Assembly: GCA_963827275.1 (NCBI GenBank)
Contig: CAWHAA010000010.1
Span: forward strand, 1-64,000
Reading direction: 5' to 3'
DNA: 64,000 bases
Source: an uncultured Spirochaetota bacterium
GTDB lineage: Bacteria; Spirochaetota; UBA4802; UBA5550
Position numbers and translations under genes: made by a program. How positions within the stretch are numbered: the first letter of the stretch is position 1; the number at the start of each line of letters is the position of its first letter. Positions 1 through 6,842 of this stretch are shown one piece after another. The notes beneath the pieces were generated by a model. The model did not search any database and had not been told where the DNA came from. It saw nothing but the letters and a program-made list of their open reading frames with translations.

Positions 1-265
1 TATTAATAATCCCAATATACCATCATAATTAGTCTTTATGATACAGTATCAATATATGATCGATAAAATAAACAAGATACACTTCAAGAGTCGACCTTGT
101 ATATTTTTAATGCATTGCATACTGTTGAAAGTAACTTTCAAATAATTTTATCAAATATTTATTCCCGATTTACTAATAATAAAACCAATTCAAAATAATT
201 GAATGGTTAAAGAAACCCTTATCAGTCGGGAACAGAATGAGTTTTAAAGTATGCTACAAAGATAA

Positions 266-320
266 ATAAGGATCGGGTCAGAATGACCCAACATAAGGAT
301 CGAGTTGAAATGACTCACAC
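266..320 (+). repeat. Two tandem 27-28 bp imperfect repeats, each with an ATAAGGATC leader and a small hairpin
   Basis: ataaggatcgggtcagaatgacccaac (266-292) and ataaggatcgagttgaaatgactcacac (293-320); stems GGGTCA/TGACCC and GAGTT/GACTC. Confidence 0.6.
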
Positions 321-377
321 AAGGAGGCTCCTGTGCCAATAACAGGCCATTTTTGAAATGACCTGACAGGTCCACTG

Positions 378-602
378 ATCATAACGGTTTCTTTTCAATG
401 TCGGCGCCGGCATTGTCGTATTGTCGCATGGCGAGTAATCCATGCGCTAAGAGGCATAACCTCTTGTATGTTCTTTGAAAAAGTGAACCGCTAAATCGAA
501 TTCATGCAAAATGTCTTCGGACAATTTCGCTCATAAGATGGTGCGGGATAGACCCCGTGATTTTTTTGTAATCCGGCGGGCAGAATGAATTATGTTATAG
601 AT
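378..602. other. Long imperfect palindrome with attC-like ends and internal hairpins (attC-like site or structured RNA)
   Basis: Left end ATCATAAC..TTCAATGTCGGCGCCGG pairs with right end CCGGCGGGCAGAATGAA..GTTATAGAT; internal stems CGCATGG/CCATGCG, AAGAGG/CCTCTT, TGTC-TTCG-GACA, GCGGG/CCCGT. Confidence 0.5.
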
Positions 603-777
603 ATATAATATTATTTGTTGATAATCACTACGATGCCAGATCGAGTATAGCTGTCTCTGACTGTGGCTCATAAAAGGGTTGTTTGATATTTATAAGTAAT
701 TATAATCAAATTATTTGAGAAAAAAAACAGCTATTTTAACTATTATTAGTTAAATTTTTTTTATTTTTTCTGATCCA

Positions 778-884
778 CTATCCAGATCATGAAATCCAGC
801 AGGATATCATCGACAACCTGGTTCGAGTACTGTCTTCCCGTGGGAGCATGAGGCGCTTTTCGAACTCCGGGAAGCGCCTTTTTT
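778..884 (+). repeat. Cassette-boundary repeat copy 1 (71-bp arm + GAGCA core + terminator hairpin)
   Basis: Arm 778-848 matches copy 2 at 65/71 and copy 3 at 68/71 positions by manual alignment; it ends GGTTCGAGTACTGTCTTCCCGTGGGAGCA. Confidence 0.95.
851..884 (+). terminator. Rho-independent terminator-like hairpin (part of the repeat)
   Basis: AGGCGCTTTTCG-AACTC-CGGGAAGCGCCT followed by a T run. Confidence 0.8.
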
Positions 885-932
885 CTTTGTATTAGATTAT
901 GTGATGATTTTGATGACTGTATCGGGCAGGGA

Positions 933-1277
933 TTAGTCTATCAGAGAACGTACTTTTGCGATCAATTCATCCATCGTCTCTCCATCTAAACAATCAATGT
1001 ACTCTGCATTGCGAGTTTTCCAATCCAGGCTTTTAATCTGGTCTGAGAGAATTACACCATTGATTTCGGATTTTGATTGAACAGAAACTTCAAATGGATA
1101 ACCTTTTACCTTTGACGTTATTGGACAGAAAAGTGCGAGATTTGTTTTGGCATTATATGTCTTGGGAGAAATCACCACTGCCGGTCTTCTCCCACGCTGT
1201 TCATGCCCTGATTGTGGTGTAAAATCCAGCCACACCATGTCTCCTCGCCCGGGAATATATGATTTTGACTTTACCAT
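933..1277 (-). CDS. mazF: PemK/MazF family endoribonuclease toxin
   Basis: YIPGRGDMVWLDFTPQSGHEQRGRRPAVVISP...CPITSKVKGYPFEV...LSDQIKSLDWKTR, typical of MazF. Confidence 0.95.
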   Translation of the reverse strand: MVKSKSYIPGRGDMVWLDFTPQSGHEQRGRRPAVVISPKTYNAKTNLALFCPITSKVKGYPFEVSVQSKSEINGVILSDQIKSLDWKTRNAEYIDCLDGETMDELIAKVRSLID

Positions 1278-1510
1278 GATTCATTACCGGTTGAAGCGCC
1301 GCTGTCGGTCTCTGAATGGAGATTCGTACGCTTAATGCCCCGCAGCAGGTCATCAAGTTTATATTGTTTTTTTACCGGCTTAACAACCAACGATTCATTG
1401 GTCACTTTTATATCCGCTACTGTGCCATTAGTTATTCCAGCATCTTTGGCATATGAGGATGGGATTCGCATGGCCAGGCTATGGCCCCATTTTTGTATTT
1501 TAACCTTCAT
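1271..1510 (-). CDS. mazE: AbrB/MazE family antitoxin
   Basis: KIQKWGHSLAMRIP AbrB-type N-terminus, YKLDDLL and GNESW C-terminus; overlaps the mazF start. Confidence 0.95.
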   Translation of the reverse strand: MKVKIQKWGHSLAMRIPSSYAKDAGITNGTVADIKVTNESLVVKPVKKQYKLDDLLRGIKRTNLHSETDSGASTGNESW

Positions 1511-1525
1511 GGCGTTACCTATATG

Positions 1526-1569
1526 TTATGTATCTTCTTTGAAGATACATAATCTTATCAGTCAGTCAA
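1526..1569 (-). promoter_or_regulatory. mazEF sigma70-type promoter with an overlapping palindromic operator
   Basis: Minus strand TTGACT-16 nt-TATCTT; perfect 12-bp inverted repeat TTATGTATCTTC-ttt-GAAGATACATAA (1526-1552) covers the -10 box. Confidence 0.75.
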
Positions 1570-1620
1570 GTATTTATTTTTTAAAAAGCATAATACTTTC
1601 ATTATTTATAATAACCTTCC

Positions 1621-1727
1621 CTATCCAAATCATAAAATCCAGCAGGACCTCATCGATAACCTGGTTCGAGTACTGTCTTCCCGGGGGAGCATGGGCGCTT
1701 TTCGAACTCCGGGAAGCGCTTTTTTTT
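1621..1727 (+). repeat. Cassette-boundary repeat copy 2 (arm + GAGCA + terminator)
   Basis: Arm 1621-1691, then hairpin GGGCGCTTTTCGAACTCCGGGAAGCGCT and a T run (1693-1727). Confidence 0.95.
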
Positions 1728-1762
1728 ATTTGTTTGTTTACTGAAGGTAGGTAAGCTATAGT

Positions 1763-2089
1763 TTAAGTAAGTGATTCGATTTTCTTTCTCAAATCCGGGA
1801 CCTGGTTTTTCACCACGTCCCACACGACCTTGTAATTCACCCCAAAATAATTATGGATTAGCATGTCTCTCATACCCGCTATTTTCTTCCATTCCACATC
1901 AGGATATTGTTCCTTAAATTCTACTGGAAGGTTTTTAACAGCCTCCCCTATAACTTCAAGGCTCCGCACAAAACTACGCCGAAGGTTTTCATCTTCTATA
2001 AAAACAGCATAATCAAGGCCTGAGGACTGGCGCATGAGATAATCAGCTTCCTCAATGATATGCAGCAAATAAGCCTTATAATTTTTCAA
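1763..2089 (-). CDS. HepT-like HEPN (DUF86) RNase toxin
   Basis: R-X4-H motif RDMLIH(NY), RSLEVIGEAVK, WKKIAGMR; directly downstream of the MNT gene. Confidence 0.92.
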   Translation of the reverse strand: MKNYKAYLLHIIEEADYLMRQSSGLDYAVFIEDENLRRSFVRSLEVIGEAVKNLPVEFKEQYPDVEWKKIAGMRDMLIHNYFGVNYKVVWDVVKNQVPDLRKKIESLT

Positions 2090-2393
2090 TGAACCTGACC
2101 TCTTTGAGGACAGACGGTGCGATGTGCGGACTCAACATGTCAACTGTTATCAAATCCACATTTTGATGCAGAAGAGAAGAAAGCTCATCCGAAAGGGATG
2201 TAACCGTATCAAAATATCCTTTATAATTCACTCCAAAAGACTTTTCATCGAATTCAACAAGCAGGTCAATATCGCTGCCCTTTTTTTCTTCGCCACGGGC
2301 ATACGATCCAAAAAGACCGATTTTGCTCACATGGTGCTTTTTTAATAGTTCATTGTTTTTCTTGAGAATTTCAAAAATTGTGCCGGTCGTCAT
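2076..2393 (-). CDS. MntA-like minimal nucleotidyltransferase antitoxin
   Basis: GLFGSYARGE...SDIDLLVEF (GS-X10-DXD); start chosen at ATG 2393, although the ORF extends to 2426. Confidence 0.92.
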   Translation of the reverse strand: MTTGTIFEILKKNNELLKKHHVSKIGLFGSYARGEEKKGSDIDLLVEFDEKSFGVNYKGYFDTVTSLSDELSSLLHQNVDLITVDMLSPHIAPSVLKEVRFIEKL

Positions 2394-2519
2394 TATCGTT
2401 CCCTTGAATATATTCTTTTTGAACATTATTTATCATATGACAACCATAAACGTAAAGCAAAAATTTGATGGAAGCGGATAAAATACATATTATTAAATTA
2501 TTCGATATTTTCTATTCCA

Positions 2520-2590
2520 CCATCCAGATCATAAAATCCAGCAGGATATCATCGACAACCTGGTTCGAATACTGTCTTCCCGTGGGAGCA
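2520..2590 (+). repeat. Cassette-boundary repeat copy 3 (left arm only, ends at GAGCA)
   Basis: 68/71 identical to the copy 1 arm; followed by unrelated sequence instead of the conserved hairpin. Confidence 0.95.
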
Positions 2591-2733
2591 AAAAAGCAGC
2601 AATTACCATTGCTTCCTTTTATTTCTTCGGATATATCAAAATTAGTTCAAAAATCTTGAAATTTCTTAAATATCCTTATTGCCGATAGTTCCTGTTCGAC
2701 CTTCAGTCTGAAATCTGTCACAATAATATTCAA

Positions 2734-3255
2734 TTACTTACAAACAGTCGAAAAACTGAATGTGCTGTCTGAAACATTTACACTAAGACCATCGGCATCA
2801 TTAAAGTTGCTGATTGAGATGCCGGTATATTTTATGCAATCTTCCAAGAAATCCGTATTTGGGTTTACAATGATCTGATCACTATTTACGCTGCTTGTAC
2901 TAAACGTGAATGCACAATTGCTTGCTTTAAAGCTAATAGCGTCAACCTTAATCGTCCCGACCGTGGAACCATCCAAACTGCCGCTCATGGTTATTATAAT
3001 GTTTGAATCTCCATAGATCCATATTCCGCTTTCGCAAGTGGGTCCCCCCATCATGAAACAAGGATGCAAATGTGAAAATGTAATATTTGATATTTCGAGA
3101 GGAGATTTTGAAGCCGTAAGTCCCGCGGTATACCCCGCGTTATATCCCAGGAGAAAATCGCTCTGCTCCTTTTTACTATCACTAGTATTGTCGCAATATA
3201 AAAATAATAACATACAACTAATTAATATACCATATGCCGGCTGAACATATTTCAT
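2734..3255 (-). CDS. Hypothetical lipoprotein
   Basis: Signal peptide with spirochaete-like lipobox LLFLY-C; Ser/Thr-rich beta-type body with several Cys. Confidence 0.7.
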   Translation of the reverse strand: MKYVQPAYGILISCMLLFLYCDNTSDSKKEQSDFLLGYNAGYTAGLTASKSPLEISNITFSHLHPCFMMGGPTCESGIWIYGDSNIIITMSGSLDGSTVGTIKVDAISFKASNCAFTFSTSSVNSDQIIVNPNTDFLEDCIKYTGISISNFNDADGLSVNVSDSTFSFSTVCK

Positions 3256-3588
3256 AACTGTATCCCTGATAGTAATGTGGAATTGTAATATTTATTTCAA
3301 AATTACGCACTTTTTAAAAAATATGGTAACCTGTCATACATGAACGGCGCTTCTCGATCATGTAACGTGCTTCTTTTTTTTAATTTTTTTGGGACTTGAG
3401 GAAAAATTAACCTATGGTAGAATAGCCTCCTCAATTTTTCCATTTTTATATCATTAAGACTTTTTACCATCTACCGCAATGGAGAGCGGAACAACCTTCG
3501 CATAAGTCAGGATGTTTTATTTGACATCTCCTAAAGTAATGTTATAATCAAGTCAAGTTATAAATTTTGCTCTAAATCGTCTAACAGG

Positions 3589-3631
3589 GTGTGAGCATGG
3601 GCGCTTTTCGAACTCCGGGAAGCGCCTTTTT
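3589..3631 (+). repeat. Cassette-boundary repeat copy 4 (right half only: GAGCA + terminator)
   Basis: GTGTGAGCA-TGGGCGCTTTTCGAACTCCGGGAAGCGCCTTTTT; the left arm is absent. Confidence 0.92.
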
Positions 3632-3961
3632 ATTTTGAAATCCATAAAGAACAAGTGAGTCCACAAGAATTACTGCCACAGGCGTCACCCTGCACTATCA
3701 TTCCATTCCCACTGCCCGATTTCCCTGAATTATCATTGACAATTAGATACATCATACATTTATATTATGCATGCATAAATTCTTAAATCATTCCTTGATA
3801 GAATTACAGATAAAACCCGTCCATCCGAAGATAGTGCTTTTTGAAAATATGGCAACATCCCTCATTGAAAATTAATTTACAATTATCGCACCCGTATTTA
3901 TAGTTTTGTTGCAAGCAGTCGTAGTTTTAATTTAATCATGATACCATGCAGAGGAAATACC

Positions 3962-4816
3962 ATGATCAAGAAAGTATTGATTGCTCTTTCAGTAAGTGTT
4001 GCCGTTTGCGGTCTGCTTATAGGATATGTAGTGTATCAAGCAAAAAAAGTACCTGCCAATAATGTTGATGCAACCTTAAAGACGACCACCTGTAATGATA
4101 AAAAAATCACGGTTTGTCTCGGCGACAGCATCACCCACGGCGCCGTCAGCTTTGACTATGTAGGGATGCTTTCCGTGGACCCGGAATTAAAAGAATTCAC
4201 CTTTGTCAATGAAGGGATTAACAGCAGACTGGCATATAATCTTTTACAGATTGTCGGCAGGGTCGTAGCGCTGAAACCCCGGCATGTTTTCATATTGATA
4301 GGCACCAATGACCTGAAGGCAACGCTTTCTGACAAGGAATACAACCGCTATAATGAATTATGGGACCTTCCACAGAAGCCGACAAAGAAATGGTTTGCCG
4401 GTAATTATAAACAACTGGTTTATGCCCTTAAGACAAAAACAGATGCGAAGGTCGTGTTGATATCCATACCGCCGCTTGGGGAAGATATTGAAAGCGCGCC
4501 GTTTAAACTCGCTGCTGATTATTCACGATTGATCAAGGAGATAGCGGTTGAAATGAAGGTTTCCTATCTACCGTTCAACGAGATACTTACCGCCGAACTT
4601 GTCAGGAGGAGAAAGAAAGTCGCGCTGCCCTACTCGGATGATCCCTGGTTTATGTACACGGCAATTTTAAAGCACTATCTTTTTTGTAAAGACTGGGATG
4701 CCATCTCTGATAACCGTGGTCTGCAATTTTTGACTGACAATATCCACCTAAATTCAAGATGCGGAAAGATACTCGCGGCAAAGATAAAAGAAGCCCTGTC
4801 TGCCTCCGGCACATGA
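3962..4816 (+). CDS. SGNH/GDSL hydrolase with an N-terminal membrane anchor
   Basis: CLGDSITHG, VNEGINS, LIGTND and DNIHLN blocks; GAGGA RBS before ATG 3962. Confidence 0.92.
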   Translation: MIKKVLIALSVSVAVCGLLIGYVVYQAKKVPANNVDATLKTTTCNDKKITVCLGDSITHGAVSFDYVGMLSVDPELKEFTFVNEGINSRLAYNLLQIVGRVVALKPRHVFILIGTNDLKATLSDKEYNRYNELWDLPQKPTKKWFAGNYKQLVYALKTKTDAKVVLISIPPLGEDIESAPFKLAADYSRLIKEIAVEMKVSYLPFNEILTAELVRRRKKVALPYSDDPWFMYTAILKHYLFCKDWDAISDNRGLQFLTDNIHLNSRCGKILAAKIKEALSASGT

Positions 4817-5278
4817 CCCTTTATTACAGCCTTCGATTATTTCCAGACATCCTTCCACCTCTTCGGTTCCACCGTGGTCACGCTACTCATTACCGCCCGA
4901 ACATTCTTCCTCTTAATAACAAAAAACAATATCACTGAAACATACGCTCCACATATTCCTCACTATGATCATTAATTGAGAAATTCCGACTAACGGGAGA
5001 GAATCCGGGATGAGAAGCAGTGTATCCGGCATGCAGCTTTTTCTCACCGGCGTTTCTTTAATCATGATTAAGGAATAAAATTTCATTTTAAAATCATGAT
5101 TAAAGAAGATTTGCCGCTTTGCTCTTGGTATAAATAATAAAACGACCGCACAGACGGTTTTTAAGCGAGTGGCGTGAAATCCGATCCGGTGGGATTCATC
5201 GCAGAACATCTTATCCGGATGTTTCATCGCTCAGGTTGAGGATTTCGGAAATCATTAATCAGGCAGGGGGTTAATTAT

Positions 5279-6842
5279 ATGAACAGTTCATTGCGCGCGA
5301 GCAGCAGCTGGAGCCTTATACGCTTTATTGCTTGTATTAATCACTGGCTGTTTCTTGATTTCTGAAAGCGTTCCCGTGACCCTGGAGCGTCAAACGGCCC
5401 AGGGGACCATCGTCGGGCAGCGTCATTCACATAACGGGTATGAATGCCAGCGTTATCTGGGCATTCCGTACGCCAAGGCCCCGGTTGGCGACCTTCGCTT
5501 CAGGCCGCCTCAGGACCCCGATCCATTTGAAGAAGGCAAGCATGAGGCCTTTGAATACGGATCGATGTGTCCCCAGCTCGTCATGGGGCAGGTCAGCGGC
5601 GACGAAGACTGCCTCTTTCTCAATGTGTGGACGCCGCGTGACGCGAAGCCGGGAGATCGTTACCCGGTCATGTTCTTCCTCCATGGAGGGGGCAACAACC
5701 TCGGGAGCGGCAACCAGGCCCTTGGTGATTTCGTTGGCATGGCCGAGGAAGCCAACGCCTTAAACGACCTCAACTACTTTTTCGATCAGCTGAAAAAGAT
5801 AACCACGCTCGATGAACCCATCTATCAGGGGAATTATCTTGCAGCAAGGCATAACGTTGTACTGGTCACCATCAATTATCGCCTTGGTCCGCTGGGGCAT
5901 CTCGCCCATCCCGGCATCGGCGAAGGAAGCGGTAATTTCGCGTTCCTGGATATGCTCAAGGCGCTGCAGTGGGTAAACCGATCTATCGCAAATTTCGGAG
6001 GCGACAATGGCAATGTCACCATATTCGGAGAGTCGTCAGGCTCCTGGGACACATGCGCACTCTTGAACATGCCGGCAGCAAAGGGACTCTTCCATAAGGC
6101 CATCATGGAAAGCCAGTCCTGCCTCTCCCGCACGATTGAGCAGGCCGAGGGATATGCAACGCCGTACATCAAGGCCGCCAGTTGCAGCGGCGCGACCGAT
6201 ATCGGCACATGCCTCCGCAATGCGGACCTGGAAGACCTTATAACCCCGATGTCCAATATATACGCCCTGCACCCACCATACGGGTTCATGCCGTATATCC
6301 CGGCGGTGGACGGAACAATCTTCCCGAAGCATTTCGCCGAAGCGATTGCCTCGGACCAGTTTAACCATGTGCCGGTCATCATCGGCAACAACGAAAGCGA
6401 ACTTGTCATCCCAATCGCGACCGATATCGGTTTTAATATCCCCCTTGATGCGAACCTGGACATTTTCTCCGCGTACCTCAAGGCTCCCGTATACCAGTAC
6501 CGGTTTGACCATCATCCGCTGAGCAACCTGATACCGGTCATCCACATGTTCGAATTGCCGTACGTATTCGGCGCAACAGAGGACCTCTTCGGCCGTCTGA
6601 ACAGGGAAACAGCGGTGGAAAACATCGTGAGCGCATACTGGACCCGCTTCGCGCGTACGGGAGACCCGAACGGCAGCGGTCAGGCCTACTGGCCTCCCTA
6701 TGACCGCGCGACACAGCGGTATCTCAGGCTCAATGCGTCTCCGTCGGAGGACGCCGGTTCCATTATTATCAACGAGTATAACAGGCTCCTGGCGGGACCG
6801 GCGCTCAGCCTGATCATGGGGGAGCAGATCGTCTTCTGGTAA
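5279..6842 (+). CDS. Type-B carboxylesterase/lipase, probable lipoprotein (5' end apparently frameshifted)
   Basis: YLGIPYAKAPVGDLRF, EDCLFLNVW, HGGG, NYRLGPLG and the GESSG nucleophile; the main ORF is 5328-6842 and ATG 5279 is out of frame by +1; lipobox LITGC. Confidence 0.9.

Follow-up and report, generated by a model that had tools for sequence, protein, structure and literature searches.

A row of single toxin-antitoxin cassettes at tRNA-Asn in a Spirochaetota genome, probably carried by islands of a large serine recombinase

Introduction

What kind of mobile DNA builds a row of small, separate toxin-antitoxin genes divided by one recurring repeat? The question is raised by the left end of the window, the stretch of 64,000 nucleotides analysed here (positions 1 to 64,000 of contig CAWHAA010000010.1, assembly GCA_963827275.1, an uncultured Spirochaetota bacterium). 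An earlier note, made from the letters alone, had called the row an integron-like cassette array, bounded by mimics of a tRNA 3′ end and stacked serially by a recombinase at a tRNA. We propose that the repeat is the element half of the attachment (att) site of a large serine recombinase (LSR). Islands of this enzyme at tRNA-Asn are likely to carry and reshuffle passive toxin-antitoxin cassettes bounded by attR-like junctions, a form of accretion to which exchange between the repeats would add. In what follows, G000 is the source assembly (contigs C5, C6 and C10, the last holding the window), other G-labels are the genomes compared, L-labels are fetched stretches and X-labels are runs.

Results

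The repeat and the tRNA-Asn array

A repeat search of the window returned a 96-nt family at 753, 1596 and 2495 (n = 3, spacing 843 and 899) and a 44-nt terminator family at 845, 1687 and 3593 (n = 3). The full repeat arms start at 774, 1617 and 2516, and the terminator arms at 846, 1689 and 3595. A repeat of about 107 bp had been placed at 778, 1621 and 2520/3589; its recurrence holds (92.5% identity over 107 bp between 778-884 and 1621-1726, BLAST), as do the unit lengths of 843, 899 and 1007 bp from GAGCA to GAGCA, but the third copy is split into a full arm (2516-2590) with a native-type terminator and a bare terminator arm (3589-3632) with no recombinase-side arm ahead of it. The features are as follows, with crossover positions placed by the symmetry of the sites.

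1..773, no strand: non-coding right end of a larger island cut by the contig start, by likeness to G016 and L088
774..848, plus: junction 1, element (P) arm, with a 45-bp left part and a 21-bp core at 819-839
846..884, plus: common cassette left arm (T-arm) with terminator hairpin 850-880, from the LSR-coding arm and 2-3 nt shorter
933..1277, minus: MazF/PemK toxin of cassette C (PF02452, E 1.5e-28)
1271..1510, minus: MazE antitoxin of cassette C (PF04014)
1617..1691, plus: junction 2, P arm, crossover 1687-1688
1689..1726, plus: T-arm of cassette F, terminator 1693-1721
1763..2089, minus: HEPN (HepT-like) toxin of cassette F (PF01934, E 4.4e-26)
2076..2426, minus: MNT antitoxin of cassette F (PF01909/PF18765, NTP_transf_2/Polbeta)
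2516..2590, plus: junction 3, P arm, crossover 2586-2587, the probable distal attR of the array
2591..2625, plus: native-type tRNA-Asn terminator (B′ arm), unlike the T-arm, by likeness judged by eye
2734..3255, minus: 173-aa putative lipoprotein, in a unit without P arm
3589..3632, plus: junction 4, GTGTGAGCA and T-arm only
3595..3803, plus: decayed start of cassette A (BrnT/DUF4258-like module), by alignment to cassette A of G015

Across G000 the repeat has nine matches (best non-self E 1e-42): four at the start of C10, four at the end of C6 and one behind tRNA-Trp on C5. Being confined to two tRNA loci or the C10 start, they lack the genome-wide scatter of repetitive extragenic palindromes or miniature inverted-repeat transposable elements. 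The gene-bearing units of 843-1007 bp are equally unlike clustered regularly interspaced short palindromic repeats (CRISPR) with their short repeats and short, even spacers, as had been judged before. Among genomes of the same genus the repeat is present in 10 of 16, and in none of 24 other genomes.

The window itself holds no tRNA in a tRNA search, an Rfam scan of 1-6000 gave nothing credible, and position 1 is the first base of C10, with no readable left flank. The predicted tRNA with a matching 3′ end was found on C6, where tRNA-Asn(GTT) at C6:307876-307949 ends in ...GGGGGAGCA with more repeat copies directly behind it. These copies (three full, one partial) separate a BrnT/DUF4258-like pair (a weak match), MqsRA, a second MazEF and HigBA-HigA. 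The second MazF is identical to the window copy at 110 of 115 positions, stop included. C6 then breaks in a truncated arm and enters sequence of 66-74% GC (L001:16266-17144), probably a misjoin or foreign DNA.

It is very likely that this array has its distal part in the window, because the window's conserved part lies 15-23 kb behind tRNA-Asn in G008 and G013, because in run X5 one contig leads from a tRNA-Asn 3′ copy via a unit of ~1.3 kb to window 774-881, and because 144-703 resembles an island end: it is 68% like the right end of a 37-kb LSR island of G016, just inside that island's junction. Window 400-848 is also 82% like L088. In the same run, cassette F and most of the lipoprotein unit were without cover, their flanks were covered and no contig bridged them; this was not used as evidence.

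That the row is an artefact of assembly, or a simple tandem duplication with decay, might be suspected from the break and misjoin of G000 at the array and from its two MazEF copies. The two MazEF units share only 90.8% identity, however, and these junctions and cassettes are found again in 10 of the 16 genus genomes and in 11 metagenome stretches. Independent assemblies largely refute this explanation, which we consider extremely improbable.

A large serine recombinase and its attachment sites

Directly behind tRNA-Asn, an LSR with Resolvase and Recombinase domains and a zinc ribbon stands at the end of the element in G016, G007, G014 and, interrupted, G009, so that the recombinase expected near the tRNA does occur there in relatives. 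It has 565 aa in G016 and G007, with a tail derived from the tRNA, and the G014 enzyme terminates just within the tRNA end. Its invariant residues are Y29/R31/S33 and C303/C305/C325.

In integrated islands the LSR reads antisense into tRNA-Asn, and the far arm, that is, the repeat, holds an alternative tail. The reverse strand of the repeat carries on the LSR frame with this other tail, which at junction 1 reads GRQYSNQVVDDILLDFMIW (window 839-783). Of the six frames only this one is constrained across 24 arms: 25 of 32 variant codons are synonymous or conservative and there are no new stops (nominal p 2e-4, for arms that are not independent), and the cassette arms alone give 19 of 24. The test omitted the last arm of G011, which is degenerate, an arm of G015 that has lost 1 bp, and arms of G001, G010 and G014 that are partial. 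A plus-strand frame (HPDHEIQ...) was considered as a gene remnant and rejected, with five new stops among 32 variant codons and no constraint. None of the six LSRs read, out of seven matches, is a full-length enzyme with the arm-type tail; four have the tRNA-derived tail and two stop early.

The T-loop motif lies at -24 in 31 of 32 junctions and at -19 in the tRNA, in Asn- and Trp-type arms alike, counted from a centre placed by symmetry. An offset of 5 bp in the outer binding motif between attP and attB is described for serine integrases (PMC3783163). Because of this offset, and because the reverse strand codes for an LSR tail, we read the repeat as the element half of the LSR site. It would be an attP half-site that also codes for the enzyme's own C-terminal tail, and attP would sit within the 3′ end of the LSR's own gene. 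This is what had been described as a tRNA mimic with extra bases. At junction 1 the crossover dinucleotide would be GA at 844-845, followed by GCA, which equals tRNA nt 73-75.

On the right-hand side, the motif ends at +23 in 10 of 17 tRNA/LSR junctions (the other seven have no motif) and at +20/+21 in all 16 T-arms. The T-arm is a shortened LSR-coding arm with compensatory changes in the terminator stem, and the position of its motif at +20/+21 rather than +23 brings the spacing nearer to that of attB.

In G016 a single contig has this order: tRNA, LSR, 37-kb island, repeat, HigBA cassette, repeat, native terminator. The island carries restriction-modification and helicase-type defence genes together with genes for single-stranded DNA-binding (SSB) and helix-turn-helix proteins. 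No relaxase or type IV secretion system (T4SS) match occurred among the subset of island proteins scanned with Pfam, a search that was not exhaustive, the scanned island proteins showed no phage structural gene, and viral contigs gave no match to the core. Of 12 further loci with related LSRs, 10 have the LSR reading into tRNA-His, -Arg or -Trp, and six more stretches around His/Arg LSRs of other genera (partial flanks) had no repeat arrays.

The label 'integron-like' is not upheld, and an integron was rejected. The six matches to IntI (TIGR02249) in G000 are all below the cut-off and away from the array, and none of four junctions has the attC motif pair RYYYAAC...GTTRRRY. Single strands of the arm fold no better than shuffles (z 0.89 and 0.32), in keeping with the earlier view that the repeat is not an attC palindrome.

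Some further observations concern the recombinase loci. A conserved ORF (open reading frame) of 59-62 aa abuts the LSR start (L055:493-681, L050:8002-8190, L052:14750-14929, L028:2765-2944); it has no Pfam match and is a candidate directionality factor. In G013 (L052:14919-18313) a 501-aa Asn-type LSR without tail forms a tandem pair with another kind of LSR, one whose gene reads into tRNA-Asp, and the tRNA-Asn of this genome is empty. The Asn LSR island of G014 also has a tyrosine recombinase and type I restriction-modification (L031:10394-11233).

Cassette types, order and junctions

An all-against-all comparison gave six toxin-antitoxin cassette types of ~0.8-1.3 kb, listed here with their orders from the tRNA side.

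Cassette A: BrnT/DUF4258-like module
Cassette B: MqsRA
Cassette C: MazEF
Cassette D: HigBA-HigA
Cassette E: RelE-type HigBA
Cassette F: MNT-HEPN
G000 C6: A-B-C-D
Window: C-F
G011: B-E-A
G007 and G009: E-B
G015: A-C-D
L087: B-A-D
G016: D′
G014: C
L089: F first

Both content and order vary between relatives, the comparison that the earlier note had proposed. Across ten arrays A/B and B/E each occur in both orders, so that loss from one ancestral row is insufficient to explain them. Cassette F lies directly behind tRNA-Asn in L089, at 88.6% identity to window 1675-2590. A precise filled/empty pair of alleles is given by G011, where the tRNA is followed by B-E-A, and L082, where an island end is followed by B-E-A: from a common 11-mer onward there are no mismatches in 5,898 bp (L082 covers the right end of the island, its left end and LSR lying outside the stretch). 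This identity, with tRNA on the left in one and an island end in the other, indicates that the tRNA joined to a cassette left arm acts as an empty site. In G008 and G013 the tRNA-Asn has no array, and att-bounded units without a recombinase stand in tandem with an autonomous element in G016, G009 and G014. The native-type terminator at window 2591-2625 resembles, by eye, the DNA behind the empty tRNA-Asn of G008 and G013 and the last junctions of G015, G016 and L088.

Cassettes A, B, D and E have a copy of the 21-bp core on either side and contain an internal second site, in which a CA centre separates a P-type half from a mirrored tRNA half. All 18 rows, some of which show one site in two assemblies, have P (-24) with mirror-tRNA (+19) geometry, and the site folds as an inverted repeat (z -3.5).

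Of the modules that had been assigned one to each unit, MazEF and MNT-HEPN are borne out by Pfam; the MNT antitoxin probably starts at the ATG at 2393, and its homologue in L089 has 105 aa. The label lipoprotein is a judgement by eye, from a hydrophobic N-terminus and a Cys. The 173-aa ORF has no Pfam or PADLOC match, with a 0.78 Atlas lead as the only one, and the interior of its unit has no DNA match in the 16 genus genomes. Because it lacks a P arm we set this unit apart: it is not a clean cassette. Beyond it, the region 3595-3803 matches cassette A of G000 C6 and of G011 at 76% over 67 bp. Between these two features, a perfect (12/12) sigma-70-type promoter with extended -10 lies at 3521-3548 on the plus strand, aimed at the terminator at 3599-3627; the RNA predicted from it has ~75 nt, and a decayed small ORF lies on the opposite strand at 3303-3470.

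How the cassettes may move

In the reading that we favour, the 565-aa LSR would insert islands of defence type at the final bases of tRNA-Asn(GTT), with a crossover that symmetry places at tRNA nt 71-72. The units of 0.8-1.3 kb would be cis-mobilizable cassettes without a recombinase, each made of the common terminator arm, one toxin-antitoxin module and a P arm. Their common left arm would be a shortened P′ arm that serves as B′; the tRNA/T-arm junction would be a reusable attB, and each P/T-arm junction an alternative attR. A neighbouring LSR island could then excise alone or with at least one cassette, the P arm of the cassette would supply the recombinase tail on the circle, and re-insertion elsewhere would permute the order. 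Exchange via repeats of 21-70 bp would add to the reshuffling, and the toxin modules may favour retention. If the T-arm acts as B′, ordinary serine-integrase chemistry suffices; since the P arms of excised cassettes would supply the tail of the enzyme, it would also be clear why cassette arms are constrained and orders permuted.

Several observations weigh against this reading, and some of them favour an alternative in which the LSR moves big islands only, the cassettes being decayed island ends reshuffled by homologous recombination or slippage between direct repeats of 21-70 bp (core with internal core). The identity of 60-bp arms is 0.87 between cassettes with the same cargo and 0.88 otherwise; the 20 bp of cargo next to the arm do follow cargo type (0.56 versus 0.34). 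Because arm identity is uncoupled from cargo and the adjoining bases are coupled to it, exchange within the repeats is pointed to. The 21-bp cores that flank A, B, D and E agree with this alternative, as does the absence of the 125-bp piece between the cores at four junctions (G009 twice, G015 and L087). Likewise, the circular junctions that the earlier note had suggested looking for did not appear: the contigs of four runs hold no circle or skipping joint. On the other hand, the cassette P arms keep the LSR-tail frame stop-free and conservative, although recent copying from islands would do likewise, and in G007 and G009 the join between cassette ends and LSR-coding arms falls precisely on the crossover. 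As a complete account we judge this alternative unlikely; homologous exchange among the repeats probably contributes.

Other points against carriage by islands concern the sites and the source genome. Native B′ arms are without the motif, and there are P/P′-type junctions (G007, G009 and G016), so the T-arm may have its B′-like spacing by coincidence. In the G016 cassette the arm is of the +24 kind, and the model leaves the entry of new cargo into cassettes unexplained. Neither LSR nor resolvase is present in the G000 assembly, which is 92% complete and broken exactly at the array. The adjacency of C6 and C10 is a reconstruction, with synteny loose in G010, uninformative in G001 and a misfit in G016, and the two contigs could stem from two co-binned strains.

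Serial stacking at a tRNA, as first envisaged, stands in so far as the array lies at tRNA-Asn, but insertion one by one explains the data no better than carriage with a neighbouring island. In its strict form, each cassette would excise and integrate alone as a circle of 0.8-1.3 kb with the LSR acting in trans, a functional analogue of an integron in which the internal site is perhaps an orthogonal exchange point. Cassettes B and F directly behind tRNA-Asn, A behind a tRNA 3′ copy, the conflicting orders, and the geometry and fold of the internal site are in line with this. Yet island excision can account for a first position too, neither the viral contigs nor the four runs showed a circle, and the two junctions that bound a cassette are of like type, a pair that serine integrases are described as recombining inefficiently in the absence of a directionality factor (PMC3783163). 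We therefore regard solo movement as very unlikely. Conceivable, though doubtful, is a more elaborate form: a dedicated lineage of minimal toxin-antitoxin cassettes run in trans by a serine recombinase, the counterpart of an integron, in which the left arm was re-spaced from attP- to attB-type and so keeps the tRNA site reusable, the internal site with its different central dinucleotide swaps cargo, and each cassette donates the recombinase tail at excision.

Related tRNA systems

A sister system, with its own LSR and with PIN and HigBA cassettes in a matching arrangement, is found at tRNA-Trp, G000 included. On C5 (L002:7099-8276, C5:457098-458275) there lie, behind tRNA-Trp, a PIN toxin-antitoxin unit, then a Trp-type arm and an LSR 3′ remnant of 84 codons, and parallel tRNA-Trp arrays occur in G001, G008 and G016. 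Contig C1 of G016 (22.8 kb; L036/L120) was considered as an excised circle and rejected, since it aligns at 93-96% with the tRNA-Trp island region on the main contig of that genome and its ends do not overlap; it is a strain variant of this region.

Ahead of the true tRNA-Asn of C6 lie seven tandem partial copies of ~78 bp (L001:11320-12318, C6:307319-308317), in which a 17-nt hairpin takes the place of part of the anticodon arm. Behind the true tRNA, an 87-aa GIY-YIG gene ends in another such partial copy, and the cassette array adjoins this copy. Partial copies of this kind are also present in G001 and G013. This series is a separate system from the cassette array.

Discussion

Known systems

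Integron arrays consist of short, single-module cassettes that are rich in toxin-antitoxin genes and variable in order. The array at tRNA-Asn shares the short one-module toxin-antitoxin cassettes and the varying order, but has neither IntI nor attC, and its sites are double-stranded serine-integrase sites. It is instead a minimal form of known LSR tandem islands with cis-mobilizable elements, as in staphylococci and Dehalococcoides.

The ssrA islands of Dehalococcoides, with the serine integrase DsiB, include 15 islands without integration module that were proposed to be cis-mobilizable (PMC3146451). As in our loci, a reverse-strand LSR lies by attL, attP and attL overlap with it, its C-terminus depends on the state of the site, and tandem islands are marked by direct repeats. 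The loci differ in target (here the last bases of tRNA-Asn or tRNA-Trp), in enzymes (one LSR with a 62-aa upstream ORF against DsiA/DsiB), in the units of 0.8-1.3 kb with one toxin-antitoxin module each, a common left arm and an internal second site, and in an alternative tail conserved at the protein level.

Streptococcal cis-mobilizable elements (CIMEs, 1.2-13 kb) and microCIMEs (130-220 bp) arise by site-specific accretion (PMC7563491, PMC5704250). They too lack a recombinase, retain att sites and stand beside an autonomous element in a tandem array, mostly on the side away from the target gene, and our 125-bp piece is close to microCIME size. Their carriers are integrative conjugative or mobilizable elements (ICEs/IMEs), whereas the scanned subset of our island proteins has no relaxase or T4SS match; here, moreover, unrelated cargoes share one arm scaffold and their order is shuffled across species. 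Composites of the staphylococcal cassette chromosome (SCC) with psiSCC likewise have tandem units separated by direct repeats, some without recombinase genes (PMC9430635), and the Ccr enzymes of SCC are serine recombinases (PMC3146451). Their target is orfX and psiSCC are cited at 2.6-28 kb; here the target is a tRNA, and a single LSR of 565 aa is encoded by a gene that overlaps the enzyme's att site. With phage-type LI/A118 serine integrases (PMC3783163) the system shares the 5-bp shift of the outer motif between attP and attB, but no phage structural gene is among the scanned island proteins and B′ is unconstrained.

The broad architecture is thus already known. The array differs in its very small units, each with a single toxin-antitoxin module, in a common left arm and an internal site, and in the conservation of the alternative tail. 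In the literature searched, which left most subscription journals outside, this Spirochaetota system is not described.

Meaning of the array

Catalogues of genomic islands miss such units by design, because TIGER/Islander drops islands of less than 2 kb and requires an integrase (PMC12424338). The locus offers natural native, filled, empty and cassette junctions, together with a filled/empty pair, as test substrates. It bears on the reuse of an occupied site by a directional serine integrase, and on a possible regulation of the enzyme by a C-terminal tail that changes with state, a point that was not settled for DsiB (PMC3146451). If the cassettes are carried as we propose, a serine recombinase that targets a tRNA is able to assemble toxin-antitoxin modules, one per unit, into a row that is reshuffled.

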